Virus record (IMG/VR): IMGVR_UViG_3300044710_000077 | Span: 9,112 to 73,111 of that record | Length of the DNA: 64,000 bases | Direction: 5' to 3' (one strand) | Source of the DNA: a virus | Shown here: piece after piece, positions 53,696 through 63,225 of the stretch | Position numbering within the stretch: the stretch's first letter is position 1 | How the letters are laid out: the number at the start of each line of letters is the position of its first letter | The notes under the pieces: model-generated | Told to the model about the DNA's origin: nothing | Database searches by the model: none | The model's input: the letters and a program-made list of their open reading frames with translations, nothing else | Made by a program: the position numbers and the translations under genes

Positions 53696-55405
53696 TCACC
53701 TTTGGAATATCGGCAGCGACGCCGGGCTGCCGGTGTCGTCCTGCATTGTCCGGGGCGCTTTCAGCAGCCGCGCATACGCCCCGCTGGTCGCATCGCCGCG
53801 GTCGTTCGGCTTCGCGGGAAACTGACATAGCTCGTCGAGATACGGCATAATCCAGGCGCCTTCCTCAGGCGTTTCACCTTCGACGATAATCACGTTACCA
53901 ATTTCCGCCTGCGATGCAAACGGAGTAGCGCGCGTCGGCTTGTCGCCAGTCTCTGGCGTGAAATGCACGTCGTAGCCGGCCAAGGCCGTCCCTAGGCCGC
54001 GCTTTTGCACTTTTCCGGCTTGGCCCGGGTCCTGCGGCAACGATACCTCGTAGCGCCCGAAATGCCGCGCGCACCATATCCGGTCGGCCGCGCATATGGT
54101 CAAAATCCACGGCTCGGCATTTTCAATGCGCTCGGCCCGACAATTGGCAATATAGATTTTGCCGTCCGTCTTGGGCCACGCCGAGCCCAGCAGCACGCCA
54201 GCGGTGCGCGCTGAATTCGATTGGCTGAATATTTCCTCGGTATCGGCCAAATCGAAATGGCGCACCCAGCGCAGACCTGACGGCGGCACGCGCACCCGCT
54301 TTAGGAACCATGGCAGCTTGAACATGCCGCCGCCCCGCGGCGTCGGTTCCTGCTGATGTTGTCCGCTGACTGCGTATGGGGTCATCTCCTTTTCGAGCGC
54401 GTCGACTACGGCGGGCGGGAAGCGTTCGGGGAATAGCAATTCGCCTTCGACTTGGCGCGGGTCGGAAAATATCGGGGTAATGCACCGCTTGGCGGCGATG
54501 AAGCGCATGGGCAGCACAAGCGCAACGTGCGGGATGCCTAATTCTTCCCAAAGCCCAGACGGGTCCTGTTTATGGACCCGCTGCATAATTAGGCCGATTG
54601 CCGACCGCACAGGGTCGTTAATCGACATGGGGACACGCTCGCGCATGATAAACCGCGCATGCTCGCGGTCGGCATCCGAATTTGCCTGCACGACGGACAC
54701 GGGATCGTCAATTGTCAGCACGTCACCACGGCCGCCGGTCAGGCGGTCGAACGGCACGCCTTCGCGTGTACCCTTGGCCGCGTTCTCAAAGGACGTTTCG
54801 CCGAATCGGGTCAGCACGACGCGATTGTGGAATTCGCCTTCGGCATCCTTGCCCCATAGCCGCTGATACCAGGCCGACAGAATCAGGTCGCGCGTCTTGC
54901 GGGTATCGCGGCGCACCCAGTTTTCGGAATACGACGTCGACAAAAACCGGTGGTGCGCAAGGTTCGCTGGCCCCCACTCCCACGCATTCCACAAAACGGA
55001 TACGCAGATACTTTTTGAAAACCCCGGAGGCACGTTCATCCGCAGCCGATTCGGCGCGCCCATGGCCATAAACGTGCCGTGGGTAATTGCCTCCAAGTGC
55101 TGGCATATTGCGCGGGTAACCCAGCCTTCGACGAATTGCGTCCGGGGCTCAAGGACGTGCCAGGCTTCGCGCACAAAGCCTATCAGCGTGCGGCAACGCT
55201 CACGAATTGCCGCTGCGTTCTTATCGAGGTCAAACCGCTCGCGCTGCTCAGCCCGGCGCTGCTGTTCCGCCTGGACCTTGGCCAGCAGGCGCCGCAGGTC
55301 CCCCGTCGTCCGCAGGCCCATGCTGTGAAGCTGGGCCAGGATCACTTTGCGCTGCGTCGGGGACAATGGGGCTGACAGTTCGGGCAAGGGCGGCAAGTCC
55401 GTCAT
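53696..55405 (-). CDS. terL: Terminase large subunit
   Basis: NVPPGFSKS (Walker A), LTGGRGD.LTIDDP (Walker B), IMQRVH, QQEP, HFDLA, GDKPTRA, FP...ND..DA.SGA. Confidence 0.96.
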   Translation of the reverse strand: MTDLPPLPELSAPLSPTQRKVILAQLHSMGLRTTGDLRRLLAKVQAEQQRRAEQRERFDLDKNAAAIRERCRTLIGFVREAWHVLEPRTQFVEGWVTRAICQHLEAITHGTFMAMGAPNRLRMNVPPGFSKSICVSVLWNAWEWGPANLAHHRFLSTSYSENWVRRDTRKTRDLILSAWYQRLWGKDAEGEFHNRVVLTRFGETSFENAAKGTREGVPFDRLTGGRGDVLTIDDPVSVVQANSDADREHARFIMRERVPMSINDPVRSAIGLIMQRVHKQDPSGLWEELGIPHVALVLPMRFIAAKRCITPIFSDPRQVEGELLFPERFPPAVVDALEKEMTPYAVSGQHQQEPTPRGGGMFKLPWFLKRVRVPPSGLRWVRHFDLADTEEIFSQSNSARTAGVLLGSAWPKTDGKIYIANCRAERIENAEPWILTICAADRIWCARHFGRYEVSLPQDPGQAGKVQKRGLGTALAGYDVHFTPETGDKPTRATPFASQAEIGNVIIVEGETPEEGAWIMPYLDELCQFPAKPNDRGDATSGAYARLLKAPRTMQDDTGSPASLPIFQR

Positions 55406-55805
55406 CGGGCAACTCGCTCAAGTCCTGATCGAAGTCGTCATCGCGGCCGATATTCTTGACCGTGGCAAGGGCCGGGGTTTCGTATTTGACGATACGCCCG
55501 GCAGCGTCGTCCGCCAATTGCAGATGGCGCTCCATGTCGGCTTTTTCGGCTGGCGTATATTCCCGGATAATTTTTCCATCCGGCCCGGCAGCCTTTTTCT
55601 GGATTATGCTGACCTGCCACATATGGAAATTCATGCGCAGGCGCATGACCGATATCGCCTTTGGCGTTTTCTGCCCGCTGGCGTCCAGGCGGTCGCGGTC
55701 GTGATTCTGCTGTTCCAGGTCGGTGACCCGGCGCGCAAGGTCTGGTTTTAGGCGGGGGCCGGAACCCGGACGCGCACCGCCCCAGTCTGGGCTGTCGGCT
55801 GGCAT
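55248..55805 (-). CDS. terS: Terminase small subunit (probable)
   Basis: WGGARPGSGP N-terminal motif, GGAG RBS, directly upstream of and overlapping terL. Confidence 0.7.
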   Translation of the reverse strand: MPADSPDWGGARPGSGPRLKPDLARRVTDLEQQNHDRDRLDASGQKTPKAISVMRLRMNFHMWQVSIIQKKAAGPDGKIIREYTPAEKADMERHLQLADDAAGRIVKYETPALATVKNIGRDDDFDQDLSELPDDGLAALARTVSPIVPDAAQSDPGPASQHGPADDGGPAAPAGQGPGGTAAPG

Positions 55806-55867
55806 GCTCCGCTTATAGCGCCGTTGGGCGTTATATTTCAAGGCGGTATGCGCGCGAACAATGGAAA

Positions 55868-56078
55868 GACAATGCCTTTGCATTGTCGACCGGTCGACAG
55901 ATTGTCGGTCAAGCGGCTTGATCGACACTTTGTCGGTCGAGCGAATTTCGGGAATTAAAAAGGGGATTATTATTCCAGAAAATAGATCGCGGCCGAAAAT
56001 GCGAAAATGGCCGCAAATCACGAATTGTTACACGTAACTCCCAACAATGCGCTGTGGAGAACCGGCTAAGTCATTGAT
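55868..56078. promoter_or_regulatory. Palindrome cluster and IHF-like site upstream of terS (candidate packaging/control region)
   Basis: gacaatgc/gcattgtc, perfect tgtcgaccggtcgaca, tgtcggtcaagc/gcttgatcgaca, repeated ttgtcg; AT-rich tract; ctaagtcattgat at 56066-56078 (reverse ATCAAtgacTTA). Confidence 0.5.
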
Positions 56079-56114
56079 GTAATGTTGGCAAATCAAAATC
56101 TGGAATATCGACTT

Positions 56115-56123
56115 TGCTATAAT
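56115..56123 (+). promoter_or_regulatory. Extended -10 sigma70-type promoter element for the + strand block
   Basis: tgctataat (TGnTATAAT) ~50 bp upstream of ATG 56174 with GGAG RBS. Confidence 0.55.
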
Positions 56124-56173
56124 GCGGCTGTCGGCTGGAAATTGCCGACGAAATGCCAACCGGAGAATTACCC

Positions 56174-56428
56174 ATGACAGACGACCTGGATATTCCAGAA
56201 TTCCTAAAGCGGGGGCCTGCGGCCCCGCCGCAACCGGCAACGCCAAGAACACGCCGACGCGCCGCCATGCGCACTATCCCATACCCGCGTGGTGGCTATG
56301 CACGGCTACTGCGGCAGAACCGGCGGCCGGACAATATCAGCGAGGCGACTTGGCAAGCGTGTCGCGACTCGATTGCCGAGCGCGCGAACCGCATGGCGAA
56401 GCTACGCGAACTGCGGGGGTGGAAATGA
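56174..56428 (+). CDS. Small basic protein with FtsZ C-terminal-peptide-like N-terminus
   Basis: MTDDLDIPEFLKR; GGAG RBS. Confidence 0.65.
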   Translation: MTDDLDIPEFLKRGPAAPPQPATPRTRRRAAMRTIPYPRGGYARLLRQNRRPDNISEATWQACRDSIAERANRMAKLRELRGWK

Positions 56429-57036
56429 CCCGCCGCAAATATGCGACCGTCAACGGACGCTGGCCCGACACCATCCCGCCCTTGACTGGGCCCGAGGCCG
56501 TTACGGCCGCCAAGCGGCTATGGCGCACGGCGACCGGCAGCGCATGCCCATACCGCGTCGTGGTGACCACAGGCGCGCGTGTCGGCCGCTGGATTGTCCG
56601 CGGCGGCTTTGGCACGCGCTTGGTGCGCGACGACAAGGCGCGCGCCCTGGTGCTGATCGTAAACCCCAAAGCAGGCTGGCATGAATTCGTCCACAGCCTG
56701 TCGCACAAGGCGCACCGCAAGCTTCACCCGGGCATCCCGGACCACGACGACCTTGGCCGCCACGCGTTCGTTGAACGCTCGATGATTGACCACGTTGTCG
56801 GGTCCGGCTGGCTGGACGGGCGATTGAAGCGGCCCGAACGGCCGGCACCCAGCCGGGAGGATTTTGCCAAAAATGTCCGGGCTGAACGCGCCAAGCGTAT
56901 CGATGCGGCAATTATCCGCTGGGAACGCAAGGCCAAGCGGGCCGAACGGGCGCTGCGTAAGCTGCGCCGACAGCGCCATGCAATTTCCCGCGCAATTTCA
57001 GCGTCCGGCAATTGTGCCGTTATTGCAATAGGTTAA
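56425..57036 (+). CDS. His-rich zincin-like hypothetical protein with basic C-terminal helix
   Basis: GWHEFVHSLSHKAH...H...H...E; ATGA coupling. Confidence 0.6.
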   Translation: MTRRKYATVNGRWPDTIPPLTGPEAVTAAKRLWRTATGSACPYRVVVTTGARVGRWIVRGGFGTRLVRDDKARALVLIVNPKAGWHEFVHSLSHKAHRKLHPGIPDHDDLGRHAFVERSMIDHVVGSGWLDGRLKRPERPAPSREDFAKNVRAERAKRIDAAIIRWERKAKRAERALRKLRRQRHAISRAISASGNCAVIAIG

Positions 57037-57052
57037 ATTCCCCGAAAATAAT

Positions 57053-57094
57053 TCTCGGAAATATGCCGTTTTGGAGTTGACGGCATTTCCGAGA
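57053..57094. promoter_or_regulatory. Inverted repeat overlapping a TTGACG -35-like box
   Basis: tctcggaa-at-atgccgt / acggcat-ttccgaga. Confidence 0.5.
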
Positions 57095-57154
57095 GGGCGC
57101 TTAATGCGCGTGCCACAGGGATATCGCATCCCGCCCCGAATAGGAGAAACGGCC

Positions 57155-57364
57155 ATGTCATTCAAAGCCCCGCAAGACTGGACGCCCGGCCGCACCGTCA
57201 AGGTCGGCTTCCTGACGCTGACCGTCGTTGCCAAGGTCGCGACGCCCGGCAATTACCTGCCCGACCAGTACGCGCTGACGAACGGGCGTGGCGCGTTTTA
57301 CCGATTTATTCCTCACAATGGCCTGACGCGCTGCGCGTCGCTGGCCGAGGCGAAGGAGTGGTGA
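57155..57364 (+). CDS. Small conserved phage protein
   Basis: AGGAG RBS; QDW.PG.TVKVGFL.L.V...PD.YAL...Y.F.PHNGL. Confidence 0.7.
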   Translation: MSFKAPQDWTPGRTVKVGFLTLTVVAKVATPGNYLPDQYALTNGRGAFYRFIPHNGLTRCASLAEAKEW

Positions 57365-57572
57365 CATGGCAATCCGCCACGACGTTCTGCACTATTACCG
57401 CCTGTTCCGCGGCAATATGAAATGCACGGCTGAACAAGCCTATTGGTCAGCGCGCCGGCATATCCATTTCCGGCAACGATTAGCCAAGATGGTCAAGCCG
57501 TCGCGCGGCGCCGCAAGCGCCGCGCATAGAAGCCCATGGGGGCATTCCGCCCCGCCCGAAAAGGAGTCTACC

Positions 57573-57956
57573 ATGCTCGCATATAGGACGAACCCGACCA
57601 TGCCGAAGAAACCGCACCAAGCCGACGCTACCGACCGCGTTGATATTGAGTCGGCGCCGCTCCATCAACCTTGCGCGATGACGCGGCCAATCCCGGTCAA
57701 AGTCGCCCCAGAACCATTGCCGCCACTTGATATCCCGGCCGACGTCCTGAGCGGCCCTAAGCGCGGAATTGTCCGATTTCTGCTTTGCCGCCCCGGCGGC
57801 TGCACCCTACGCGATATCAAGCGCGGCACCGGGTGGAAGGCCATCTCCATCCCCAGGGAAGCGGCATCGCTCAATTTGTCGCTGGTCAAGGATAGGACGC
57901 CCGGGAATCCTAATCGCTATTTCGGGCGTCCATTGGACGGGGGGCCTGTGTCATGA
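57573..57956 (+). CDS. DUF3489-like winged-helix protein (frame also open from 57366)
   Basis: AAGGAG RBS; K..I..LL.RPGG.TL..I...TGW. Confidence 0.6.
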   Translation: MLAYRTNPTMPKKPHQADATDRVDIESAPLHQPCAMTRPIPVKVAPEPLPPLDIPADVLSGPKRGIVRFLLCRPGGCTLRDIKRGTGWKAISIPREAASLNLSLVKDRTPGNPNRYFGRPLDGGPVS

Positions 57957-58062: not shown

Positions 58063-59376
58063 CTAAGCGCCTGCTGGGGTAACACCGGACGGCCCCCTAA
58101 GCGTACCAGCGACGCTTTCTATGGCAATGCGGGCCGCTTTGACCTGGGCCATTGTGTGCCCGGTCGCCTCCAAGGTGGCCACGCCACCCGTGAACGCTTG
58201 CCACCGCTCGACCGCCATATCGACATAGGCCGGATCGATCTCGATGGCATGGCATATGCGGCCCGTCATCTGGGCCGCGATAATCGTCGTACCAGACCCG
58301 ACGAATGGATCGTAAACCGCATCCCCAACCCGGGAATTATTCTCCATCGGGCGCCGCATGCACTCGACGGGCTTTTGCGTCGAATGCCCCGTTTCGCTTT
58401 TCTGCGGCTTGTCGATTTCCCAAAGGGTATTTTGCTTGCGGTCGCCCTGCCAGTTGCCAGTCGCGCCTTGGCGCACGGCGTACCAGCAGGGTTCGTGCTT
58501 CACGTGGTAATCGCCCCGGCCAATTGGGAAATGCGACTTTGCCCAGATAATTTGCATCCGAATGGCAAACCCGGCCCGTTCGATGCAATGATAAAACTCA
58601 ACACTGTTGGAGCCCGCCGGGCTCCAACAGTAAATTACGTTGCCTGGGAAATTCACAAAAGCCGCCGTCCAGTCCGAGCGATCATCGTTGGTCACCCTAG
58701 CGACCGCCCTATCATCCTCAATCCTAATTATACGCTCTTTCCGCCAACCGGCGTCGTATTCGATGCCGTAGGGCGGATCGGTGACCATCAAAACGGGCAC
58801 CGCCCCGGTTAGAACCCGCTCGACGTCCGCCGCGGCGGTCGCGTCGCCACATAGCAGCCGATGCTGACCAAGCCGCCATAGATCGCCGAACCTAGTTACA
58901 GGCGCCGCGGGCGGCTCTGGGGTTTCCTCCGGGTCCGTGTGCTGCTCGCCGAACCCGGCTACGAACTGGCGTAGCTCTACGTCTGGAAATCCGATGACGC
59001 GCAATGGAAAATCCAGCTTGGCGAGGTCGCCTAATTCGACCTTCAAAAGTTCTGTGTTCCACCCCGAATTTAGGGGCAATTGGTTATCTGCAATCCGGTA
59101 ACCTCTCTTGCGCTCGTCGGACCAGCCGCGCGCAACGATGACTGGCAGCACAACGATTCCCAATTCGACGGCAGCCCGAATACGCGCGTGGCCACAGATT
59201 ATTTCGCCGGTTTCGTCGATAAGCGGTGGCACGGTGAAGCCAAATTCAATTATGCTGTCCTTAATTTGGGAAATTTGCTCGTCGGAATGCGTCCGCGTAT
59301 TCTGCTGATAATTGCGCAGTTTTTTGACGGGCCATCGCTCGATTTCGCCGGCCTCCCATGGATTGCGCTCGGCCAT
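58063..59376 (-). CDS. ParB-like N-terminal domain fused to DNA methyltransferase
   Basis: NTRTHS..QI..I..SI.EFGF..P, ICGHAR, YRIADN; LLCGDAT, VTDPPYG, HSTQKPV, YDPFVGSGTT. Confidence 0.93.
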   Translation of the reverse strand: MAERNPWEAGEIERWPVKKLRNYQQNTRTHSDEQISQIKDSIIEFGFTVPPLIDETGEIICGHARIRAAVELGIVVLPVIVARGWSDERKRGYRIADNQLPLNSGWNTELLKVELGDLAKLDFPLRVIGFPDVELRQFVAGFGEQHTDPEETPEPPAAPVTRFGDLWRLGQHRLLCGDATAAADVERVLTGAVPVLMVTDPPYGIEYDAGWRKERIIRIEDDRAVARVTNDDRSDWTAAFVNFPGNVIYCWSPAGSNSVEFYHCIERAGFAIRMQIIWAKSHFPIGRGDYHVKHEPCWYAVRQGATGNWQGDRKQNTLWEIDKPQKSETGHSTQKPVECMRRPMENNSRVGDAVYDPFVGSGTTIIAAQMTGRICHAIEIDPAYVDMAVERWQAFTGGVATLEATGHTMAQVKAARIAIESVAGTLRGPSGVTPAGA

Positions 59377-61417: not shown

Positions 61418-61605
61418 TTGAACACCGACAGCAACGCTTGCTGCATCGTTTCCGCCAACGCCTGTTGCGGGGTGAAGCCTTGGCGCAGCAACACCGCGCA
61501 ATAGCCCGCAGCGTCGATTTCGCCAGCCTGAAACCGCCGCGTGGCGTCGGCGACCACGTCGGCGAACACGGTCAGGGCAGACAACTTGGCGCTATTCGTC
61601 GTCAT
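61414..61605 (-). CDS. Hypothetical protein
   Basis: GAGG RBS; operon coupling. Confidence 0.45.
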   Translation of the reverse strand: MTTNSAKLSALTVFADVVADATRRFQAGEIDAAGYCAVLLRQGFTPQQALAETMQQALLSVFK

Positions 61606-62521
61606 CGGATTCCTCGGGGGCTTCACCCAGAAAGTCGGCCACGTCGTCGAAGCGTTCGGCGACGCCGGCCAGGACTTTGCGTTCGACCTTTTCCGCGGCC
61701 ATGACCTTGTCCCAGGCTTTCTTGTCGATAAGGCCACGGATTTCCCGGTCAATCAACTGGTCAATGGTGCGCGGGTCCAGCGCGTCCAGTTCCCAGCACT
61801 TGTCACCGAACTGCGATTCGTAGCCGGTGAATCGGCTGTCGGTTTCCTTGGCCGGATTGGGCGGCGGGTTGTAGCGTTCGACCTGGTCCATGTTCAGCGC
61901 CAAGCGACGGATTTCGACGTCGCCGCCGGCGAACATGCCCAGCCGGTCGCGGTTGTCCTCTGTCATGTTCAGCCCGGACGGGTCGTGGTCGCCCAGGTGC
62001 AGCACCACCGGCCGCAAGCCGTCGTCCAGATAGCGGCCGAATCGCTTGCCGGCGGCATACTGTTCGGACTGGCTCATATAGCCCCGGCACGACAGCCGCG
62101 GCACGCGCCAGCGTTCGCACACGGGCACAATGACGCCAGCCAGGGCTTCCTTTTCAATCCAGACCTCGGGCCGCACCGTCTGGGTGTTCCAGGGGTTGCG
62201 CTTGTATTGTTCGCCAACGGCTTCGAGGATTTCGGCTGGGCTGTCCCATAGGCTAGGGCGGTCGACGTTGCGCGTGCGGTCCTCCATGGACGACCAATCG
62301 ACCAAGCCCGCCAAGCGCGCGTCGTTTATGATGCTGCCCAGGCGCTTATATTCGGTCTGCACGTTTTTAATTAAATCGCGTGAGACGAATTGATAGTACA
62401 ACTGCCGCAAGGTCAGCACGAATCCCTGGGCGCGGTATTCGGCAATAATCGTATTCGCCTGCTCGATTATCGCCAGCGTGTCGGGTTTGAAATCCCGGGG
62501 GACAAAGGTTTCGCGGGCCAT
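61592..62521 (-). CDS. Topoisomerase VI-A/Spo11-like winged-helix plus Toprim protein
   Basis: LTLRQLYYQ, VWIEKEAL, RGY.S, LHLGDHDPSG, RRLALN..Q, WELDAL. Confidence 0.8.
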   Translation of the reverse strand: MARETFVPRDFKPDTLAIIEQANTIIAEYRAQGFVLTLRQLYYQFVSRDLIKNVQTEYKRLGSIINDARLAGLVDWSSMEDRTRNVDRPSLWDSPAEILEAVGEQYKRNPWNTQTVRPEVWIEKEALAGVIVPVCERWRVPRLSCRGYMSQSEQYAAGKRFGRYLDDGLRPVVLHLGDHDPSGLNMTEDNRDRLGMFAGGDVEIRRLALNMDQVERYNPPPNPAKETDSRFTGYESQFGDKCWELDALDPRTIDQLIDREIRGLIDKKAWDKVMAAEKVERKVLAGVAERFDDVADFLGEAPEESDDDE

Positions 62522-63225
62522 CACACTTTCCCCAGGCTGTCGATATTGATTTTGTGGACGACAAAGGACAGGGCGACAACCCATGGGTTTTCGTCCCAGG
62601 CGCCGGGGCCGTGCAGCGATTTCCATAGTTCCCCGAACGCTTGGCGCGGGTCGCTGAATCCGCGGCGCGCGTGCGGCTTATCCAGGGCTGGCGTTCCGTA
62701 TCGAGCCGCTAGAGGCCCGCTGGCCATCGGGTCGCGCGAATGGTCCCAATAAATTCCTTCCGCCTTGGCGTCGGCTTCGCTGATATCCTGTAGTCGCTCG
62801 ATTTTCGTGGCCGTCACGACCAGCGTCAGGCGCGACGCGCGACGCGGCATGTGGATAGGCGAAACCCACGGCTTCATTTCGACGTCGCTGGTGGCGGCGT
62901 AGCAAAAGGCTTCCGCCGTGGTCGGGTTGCCACTGGCATCCACCGGCGGCATTTCGGCCACGTCATACTGGAAGGTTTCGCGCACCCATAAACGATCCCC
63001 GACCCGCACCTTTTGCCAGCCGGTCATCGTCCAGTAGGTTCCGACCGGGTGCCGGCTCATGTCCAGGCGCGGGTGCGGATACCGCAGATTGAAAGTCGCC
63101 GACGCCGGGATAATCCCGCCCTTGGCGTGACGCTCGGCGTACAGCAGCCGGCGCGTGTTCGTTTTCAGGCCATCCCATGCGGCGCGGACCATCGGGGCCG
63201 ACAGTAAAATGGGCTTGTCGGTCAC
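62521..63225 (-). CDS. ASCH/PUA-like phage protein
   Basis: PILLSAPMVRA...G.KT.TRR, GDRLWVRETF, PIHMPR.ASRLTL, ERLQDISEADA.AEG, W..NPWV. Confidence 0.85.
   Translation of the reverse strand: MTDKPILLSAPMVRAAWDGLKTNTRRLLYAERHAKGGIIPASATFNLRYPHPRLDMSRHPVGTYWTMTGWQKVRVGDRLWVRETFQYDVAEMPPVDASGNPTTAEAFCYAATSDVEMKPWVSPIHMPRRASRLTLVVTATKIERLQDISEADAKAEGIYWDHSRDPMASGPLAARYGTPALDKPHARRGFSDPRQAFGELWKSLHGPGAWDENPWVVALSFVVHKINIDSLGKV

Follow-up and report, generated by a model that had tools for sequence, protein, structure and literature searches.

An FtsZ-tail-like short linear motif opens a small phage protein and recurs as a tag on proteins of phages and conjugative elements

The first gene of a small cassette in a viral genome encodes an 84-residue protein, P0001 (56174..56428, + strand, stop codon included), whose residues 1-13, MTDDLDIPEFLKR (56174..56212, +), form a short linear motif resembling the conserved C-terminal peptide of the host cell division protein FtsZ. 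Positions refer to the window, which is the whole stretch of 64,000 nucleotides that was analysed and is part of a 73.1-kb virus record with a G+C content of 62.6%. Sequence comparison indicates that P0001 genuinely and specifically resembles the FtsZ C-terminal peptide, and that its gene, far from being an isolated curiosity, exemplifies a modular tag of wide distribution. The explanation that we favour, to which we give about an even chance, is that this short linear motif mimics the FtsZ tail and docks onto the host receptors of that tail, FtsA being the likeliest of them, with the consequence that such receptors are either titrated or used for tethering.

The P0001 gene is the first in a four-gene cassette on the + strand (56174-57956). 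On the packaging side of this cassette are found the gene for the large terminase TerL (53696-55405, -) and, adjoining it, a probable small terminase gene (55248..55805, -), which is without match in Pfam, PHROGs or NCBIfam and has its likely start at MPADSP (55805), the same N-terminus being present in the metagenomic locus L261. A long ORF call at 55248-56021 probably over-extends this small-terminase gene. A divergent intergenic region of 368 nt (55806-56173) extends from the probable start of the small-terminase gene to the tagged gene; in L261, an HNH endonuclease gene (157-747, -) lies between the small-terminase-like and the tagged genes and is without counterpart in the intergenic region of the window. 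Downstream of P0001, the cassette comprises the gene for P0002 (203 aa; 56425..57036, +), a third gene of 97 aa (57071..57364, +) without Pfam, PHROG or NCBIfam match and a fourth gene of 196 aa (57366..57956, +) with a weak C-terminal DUF3489 (winged-helix) match at E 1.7e-4, under the Pfam cut-off. In a Pro-rich linker ahead of this DUF3489 match, the fourth gene also encodes PPLDIPADVLSGP (PPLDIPADVL at 57726), a partial look-alike of the tag that may be either a decayed tag or a chance occurrence. Further context is provided by a ParB_N plus N6_N4 DNA methyltransferase gene without the tag (58063..59376, -; phrog_498, E 2e-130) and by a topoisomerase-like gene (61592-62626, -). TerL is ~40% identical to the terminases of Rhizobium phages and of an Erythrobacter phage, which are the nearest isolates. 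As relatives of TerL (E <= 1e-30) are present in 10 of 401 sampled Alphaproteobacteria, with a best identity of 45%, versus one of 401 sampled Actinomycetota at 32% identity, the host of this phage is probably an alphaproteobacterium.

The initial annotation of this DNA had described an ORF at 56174-56428 that opens with an FtsZ-tail-like motif and proceeds through a Pro/Ala linker to a basic helical region, and this description is borne out in each part by the reading frame, the composition and the structure model. The motif is followed by a disordered Pro/Ala/Arg linker (residues 14-40; 56213..56293, +), which contains six Lys or Arg and no Asp or Glu residues and is modelled by AlphaFold2 without secondary structure at a pLDDT of ~62, and then by a basic two-helix domain (residues 41-84; 56294..56425, +) with a pI of 11.2, a pLDDT of 73-89 and helices spanning residues 41-48 and 57-81. 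In this AlphaFold2 model, which was obtained from a five-sequence alignment and has a mean pLDDT of 72.5, residues 1-40 are disordered save for a 3-residue helix at positions 9-11. As regards the TGnTATAAT promoter claimed in the same annotation, an extended -10-like element, TGCTATAAT, can be read directly at 56115..56123 (+) within the divergent intergenic region; it is absent from the output of a consensus promoter scan because its -35 hexamer is poor. A GGAG ribosome-binding site (56162..56165, +) is located 8 nt 5' of the ATG, the homologous proteins P0005 and P0006 share the start Met of P0001, and the P0001 stop codon overlaps the P0002 start codon in an ATGA at 56425-56428.

P0001 has no family in Pfam (E <= 0.1), PHROGs or NCBIfam, and neither a tubulin GTPase nor an FtsZ_C domain is found in its 84 residues (Pfam, E <= 0.1). 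A sequence search of the PDB returned only insignificant GlmS matches to the linker, with E values of 0.26 or worse, and a search of the ESM Atlas gave no usable match. When the 73.1-kb contig was translated over its full length in six frames, the core [IL]PxF[LIM][RK] was seen only in P0001 and at one site inside the terminase gene.

The resemblance to FtsZ put forward in the initial annotation holds against genuine FtsZ genes. The segment D4-L-D-I-P-E-F-L-K-R13 of P0001 agrees with the FtsZ-tail core D-[IL]-P-x-F-L-[RK]-[RK] with acidic residues ahead of it, and the stretch DDLDIPEFLKR is one residue off some natural FtsZ tails. Alphaproteobacterial FtsZ genes end in ...LDIPAFLRRQAN, in three alphaproteobacterial genomes FtsZ ends in [M/L/L]DIPAFLRRQAN, and the FtsZ ends of Actinomycetota read ...DLDIPDFLKS or ...DLDIPDFLKR. 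FtsZ genes taken from five genomes end in ...SMDIPAFLRRQAN, ...LLDIPAFLRRQAN, ...PLDIPAFLRRQAN and ...DLNIPSFLRRRE, with ...FDIPAYIRRR... in a gammaproteobacterial MAG. The pattern [DE]xL[DE]IP[DE]FL[KR..][RS] is matched by at least 120 stretches in bacterial genomes. Among the matches listed (at least 120 ORFs), at least 73 carry a tubulin signature, a motif that we take to mark FtsZ, and these FtsZ proteins of ~380-440 aa end in ...EEDLDIPDFLKS, ...DLDIPDFLKR or ...DDLDIPEFLRRRTF, while Pfam identified two more FtsZ examples that the signature had not flagged. A close correspondence within single genomes is seen in G003 and G004, where the tail DPLDIPEFLRRVH of a ParB-like protein of an integrative and conjugative element (ICE) is nearly identical to the FtsZ tail [L/P]LDIPAFLRRQAN of the same genome.

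Only four homologues of P0001 were found among ~15 billion proteins searched, namely P0003 (93% identity), P0004 (69%), P0005 (71%) and P0006 (41-49%). No match at E <= 1 was obtained by tblastn against 50,697 phage records, no further relatives were found in viral contigs, genome contigs or longer proteins, and L261, which encodes P0005, was the sole locus of the family returned from metagenome contigs. Together these sequences define a new five-member family with the N-terminal tag, a Pro/Arg linker and a C-terminal helix of the form ...P-x-x-[IVM]-[SD]-[ED]-A-[TA]-W...R-M-x-x-L-R (alignment A1). The N-terminal motif is the best-conserved block of this alignment, with M1, D3, L5, P8, F10, L11, K12 and R13 invariant in all five sequences; P0005, with the N-terminus MTDDLPEFLKR, lacks two motif residues and keeps the D-L-P-E-F-L-K-R core. 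Absence of the motif from homologues had been set beforehand as grounds for abandoning the proposal, and since it is retained in all four of them, this objection fails. Over 81 codons, comparison of P0001 with the metagenomic locus L261 gives a dN/dS of 0.17, and the motif codons differ by six synonymous and zero non-synonymous changes plus a two-codon indel. By these substitution patterns, the P0001 gene is judged to be under purifying selection and to be a genuine gene; the evidence from conservation is thin, as the family consists of five members.

The same motif recurs on other proteins of viral contigs. Using a DNA version of the pattern [DE]xL[DE]IPxFL[KR..]R, 79 viral-contig stretches were obtained, as compared to 4 with a control made of the same codons in reverse order (~20-fold), and an AT-rich pattern with TTR leucine codons matched 17 viral stretches versus 3 in the control (~6-fold); as these patterns fix the Leu codon families, all such counts are minimum values with a GC-content bias. 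In the 72 non-redundant ORFs, positions left unconstrained by the pattern track the FtsZ consensus: the pattern-free position -1 is D in 33, the first basic position (9) is R in 48, K in 20, Q in 2 and N in 2, and the second (10) is R in 70 and S in 2. The tag is terminal in 46 of the 72, being located <=12 aa from the first start in 15 and <=35 aa from the stop in 31, and in the AT-rich set it lies 3-12 residues from the start in 14 of 17. The tagged ORFs encode MT-A70 methyltransferases in 23 cases (one also with ParB_N), N6_N4_Mtase in two, and an FkbM methyltransferase domain, a GapR DNA-binding domain, DUF1376 and, by PHROG, a ParB-like plus methyltransferase protein in one case each. The remaining ones are without family and include several unrelated sets of 100-316-aa proteins that carry the tag right at the N-terminus, and no domain common to the carriers was found besides the tag.

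A family of ~100-120-aa proteins with an N-terminal tag is represented by L232:3663-3992 (+) and by similar proteins in L028, L047, L059, L052, L067 and L076; it has a conserved C-terminal ...P-R-I-G-S-G-Y-R-x-V-W...G-R-K-W... and no Pfam or PHROG match. In AT-rich marine viral contigs, L264:9163-10110 (+), L268, L270, L272 and L274 encode a 308-316-aa protein with the tag at residues 10-20, whose C-terminal domain corresponds to phrog_11903 and has homologues in Caulobacter phage Cr30, Sinorhizobium phage phiM19 and the Pseudomonas jumbo phage PA5oct, all of them untagged. Untagged homologues of carriers comprise Cr30 gp005, phiM19 gp185, PA5oct gp292 and a methyltransferase of Agrobacterium phage Rivra. 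Since homologues of several carriers lack it, the tag is an add-on that is dispensable for the carrier families. Concerning the origin of the low-GC tagged contigs, L062 and L278 give short 66-67% DNA matches to Pelagibacter phages, L052 has a 74% match to Puniceispirillum phage HMO-2011 over 54% of its length (no tag is present in the first 6 kb of HMO-2011), L010 has no match and L264 is ambiguous. These DNA matches, of which two are weak, are suggestive of a placement with phages of SAR11, SAR116 and roseobacters for three of the five contigs tested. Wherever a host could be deduced for tagged elements, it belonged to the Alphaproteobacteria. In a named phage, Bradyrhizobium phage ppBeUSDA76-1, the MT-A70 protein WAX24331.1 (633 aa) carries DDGLDIPAFLRRAP near residue 530.

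In bacterial genomes, the matches listed (at least 120) include at least ~21 ParB-like proteins, either 740-1260 aa long or fragmentary, with ...DPL[DE]IPEFLRRVH as their C-terminal end; they have a ParB-like start and match phrog_7783 (E 2.6e-68) and ParB-like PHROG and NCBIfam models. With a relaxed pattern, 139 of 401 sampled alphaproteobacterial genomes were matched, and the backwards control matched once. Thirty of these loci were inspected, of which 20 have the FtsZ signature, 9 are truncated FtsZ tails (...FLRRQAN or similar) and 1 is a ParB-like tail. Two to six matches are present in 6 of the 401 genomes, and the extra copies, when cut out, correspond to ParB-like proteins of 789-1001 aa with ...ELLEIPAFLRRG or ...DPLEIPAFLRRTP at the end and, in one case, to a short ORF. 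The ...ELLEIPAFLRRG type is found at L321-L323 and L325 (genomes G160, G196, G011 and G305), where one genome may have as many as five copies and the tag DNA is identical across three genomes, and this multi-copy presence with identical tag DNA suggests that the carriers belong to a recently spread family of conjugative or integrative elements. The relaxed pattern was also matched in 89 of 301 gammaproteobacterial genomes, nearly always by D-Y-L-D-I-P-A-F-L-R, which presumably represents the E. coli-type FtsZ tail that it resembles; more than one match was found in none of 300 genomes, and only in G005, which had been pre-selected. These tallies take in G045 and G245 (in the alphaproteobacterial TerL and pattern counts) and the gammaproteobacterial G1103, all three marked as unpublished genomes, on which no individual claim rests. 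Within the Alpha- and Gammaproteobacteria surveyed, and with codon-biased patterns, the tag thus looks like a feature mainly of alphaproteobacterial mobile elements.

Coupling of P0001 to its neighbour brings P0002 into consideration as a partner. P0002 belongs to a family of 22 (21 relatives) with W85, H90, S93, H94, H107, H113 and E117 invariant, and the window's P0002 contains HEFVH, an HExxH that is not conserved family-wide. It is modelled at a pLDDT of 89 as a helix, three strands and two helices in a zincin-like arrangement, followed by a 54-residue C-terminal helix. The model bears a weak likeness to zincin peptidases: the best Foldseek match is CapP (E 0.11), with MATCAP, abylysin and IrrE behind it, and a wide structure search returned coiled-coil matches to the long C-terminal helix at Z ~6. 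A tagged small gene lies within 1.5 kb of a P0002 relative at one of 50 viral loci, L232, where the tagged small protein (MSDDDLAIPAFLRR), unrelated to P0001 outside the tag, is encoded just upstream with an ATGA overlap. In the reverse direction, a P0002 relative was found beside none of the 79 tag-bearing viral loci. With these two counts, an obligate pairing of the tag with P0002 was rejected, and the P0001-P0002 pairing is therefore not general.

In the mechanism that we favour, residues 1-13 of P0001 would act as a functional copy of the host FtsZ C-terminal peptide and, presented on the 27-residue disordered linker, would dock in the pocket of host proteins that hold the FtsZ tail. As the membrane anchor of general use in Alphaproteobacteria, FtsA would be the likeliest receptor, and FzlC, MinC and ClpX, which have roles as receptors of the FtsZ tail, are alternatives. 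A predicted complex of Sinorhizobium FtsA (Swiss-Prot FTSA_RHIME) with P0001 residues 1-40 scored 0.00 in both uncontrolled runs, with an uncertain fold of the partner, and this score weighs neither for nor against docking. Binding could have either of two outcomes. P0001 might compete with FtsZ filaments for the anchor, by which division would be delayed, or it might serve as an adaptor, with nucleic acid or a second phage protein as the cargo of its basic helical C-terminal domain, and this cargo would be recruited to FtsA at the membrane or the division site. Tethering of DNA or proteins to the divisome weighs at least as much as simple titration, gaining its weight from the presence of the tag mostly on ParB-like, DNA methyltransferase, GapR-like and winged-helix-like proteins, and as carriers are mostly DNA-bound, recruitment is slightly favoured for the tag class as a whole. 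Since unrelated carriers have nothing but the tag in common, its receptor is more likely to be a host protein than one encoded by the elements. Points against the favoured mechanism are the N-terminal position of a motif that is C-terminal in FtsZ, the smallness of the P0001 family with two motif residues missing from P0005, the prevalence of DNA enzymes and DNA-binding proteins among the carriers, and the dispensability of the tag for the carrier families. A more far-reaching proposal, less likely than not in our estimate, is that a portable FtsZ-tail tag is common to the phages and conjugative elements of Alphaproteobacteria and plugs their DNA and enzymes into FtsA and other tail receptors, so that mimicry of a single host peptide would let them hitch-hike on the divisome or membrane. 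Such a tag would be grafted onto the ends of DNA-bound proteins (ParB-like, DNA methyltransferase, GapR-like and winged-helix) or of small adaptors such as P0001, and multivalent tag arrays on DNA would imitate an FtsZ filament.

The foremost rival, which we consider unlikely while giving it appreciable weight, accepts a functional and host-directed tag and assigns it to a receptor outside division, either a protease or unfoldase for which the tag would be a degron, or a nucleoid or replisome hub of Alphaproteobacteria, the FtsZ likeness then reflecting shared use of the same hub. The FtsZ C-terminus is known to contribute to recognition by ClpXP, and such a contribution is described for E. 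coli FtsZ in PMC5256927. A receptor of this kind would suit the prevalence of DNA methyltransferases, which make up 26 of the 72 carriers (23 MT-A70, two N6_N4_Mtase and L051 by phrog_799), and the DNA association of the ParB-like, GapR-like and DUF1376 carriers; carriers bound to DNA are as compatible with a receptor in the nucleoid or replisome as with one in division. Extra copies in 6 of 401 Alphaproteobacteria and in 0 of 300 Gammaproteobacteria besides the pre-selected G005 are likewise in line with a lineage-specific receptor. However, the match to FtsZ tails spans 9-11 residues including unconstrained positions, the tag does not appear to resemble clamp-binding or SSB-tail motifs, and a degron is no better than docking at explaining why stable DNA-binding proteins display the tag strictly at their termini, on long disordered linkers. 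The clamp-binding and SSB-tail motifs themselves were set aside, as neither their sequence pattern nor the requirement for a free Phe at the C-terminus seems to suit the tag.

Quite unlikely, in our estimate, is that the tag binds an element-encoded partner, or DNA or membrane directly, with a merely convergent likeness to FtsZ. In the phage studied here such a partner could be P0002, for which the ATGA overlap of the two genes and the recurrence of an ATGA-coupled tagged MSDDDLAIPAFLRR protein in the same place in L232 would speak; yet tagged genes accompany only one of 50 loci of P0002 relatives and P0002 relatives none of 79 tagged loci, and nothing points to an element-encoded partner common to the carriers, which have no further domain in common. 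The possibility that the FtsZ similarity is functionless, a coincidence in a small ORF of poor conservation, is given hardly any credence. It draws on the tiny size of the family, with four homologues in ~15 billion proteins, and on the lack of a family or structure match, and is opposed by the dN/dS of 0.17 with synonymous-only motif changes in the most conserved block of the protein, by the enrichments of 79 versus 4 and 17 versus 3, and by the strong bias of the tag towards terminal positions.

Mimicry of short linear motifs is familiar from eukaryotic viruses, and a tag of the P0001 type would be its bacterial counterpart. Being short, portable and carried by dozens of mobile-element proteins of unrelated kinds, the tag lends itself to direct tests both of the positioning of phage and ICE DNA and of the readers of the FtsZ tail in Alphaproteobacteria. 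Its occurrence on unrelated proteins of phages and conjugative elements points to an undescribed link of mobile DNA into the host division machinery, and with it numerous C-terminal extensions now annotated as 'hypothetical', in phage methyltransferases and in ICE ParB-like proteins, would be re-annotated. In the full-text literature searched, with most subscription journals outside its scope, no phage or conjugative-element protein with an FtsZ-tail-like motif is described, and the passages on FtsZ in a survey of polyvalent proteins (PMC5512222) and in a survey of ParB CTPases (PMC12704722) make no mention of an FtsZ-tail tag. As far as these searches reach, the wider tag system is new to the literature. 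That phages interfere with or exploit the division of their hosts is known, and the initial reading of P0001 as a division inhibitor or a tether to the divisome is partly supported.

Among known systems, the closest natural counterpart of the P0001 motif is the conserved C-terminal peptide of FtsZ itself, as in the tails DLDIPDFLKR, LDIPAFLRRQAN and DLDIPEFLRRRTF, with which it shares the core, the acidic flank and the terminal display on a disordered linker. It differs in that the motif is N-terminal in P0001 and C-terminal in FtsZ, and in that P0001 is an 84-aa phage protein without a tubulin or FtsZ domain. WAX24331.1 and the ParB-like proteins of alphaproteobacterial genomes carry the same tag as P0001, in the forms DDGLDIPAFLRRAP, ...DPL[DE]IPEFLRRVH or ...ELLEIPAFLRRG; in these carriers it is C-terminal or late in a linker and fused to an enzyme or to a ParB-like DNA-binding protein, and their homology to P0001 is limited to the tag. 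In the published accounts (PMC3961180, PMC10714956, PMC12482147), lambda Kil, T5 Hdi/008 and Rac KilR are small phage or prophage proteins like P0001 and interfere with the proto-ring of FtsZ, FtsA and ZipA, and none of them is described there as a copy of the FtsZ tail, unlike P0001, which is not a member of the Kil, Hdi or KilR families as it has no PHROG or Pfam match. These accounts have phage division inhibitors act on FtsZ assembly, Kil doing so through ZipA, whereas natural mimicry of the FtsZ tail would be directed at the receptors, whether to attack or to exploit them. A free FtsZ-tail peptide inhibits growth by itself, with predicted binding to FtsA subdomain 2B, ZipA and FtsZ, and is thus a laboratory analogue of the mechanism proposed for P0001; work cited in the paper on this peptide is reported to show that the FtsZ tail becomes a high-avidity multivalent ligand upon oligomerisation. 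These growth-inhibiting peptides are artificial fragments of the cell's own FtsZ, in contrast to the tag of P0001, which is natural, selected and carried on proteins of phages and conjugative elements.
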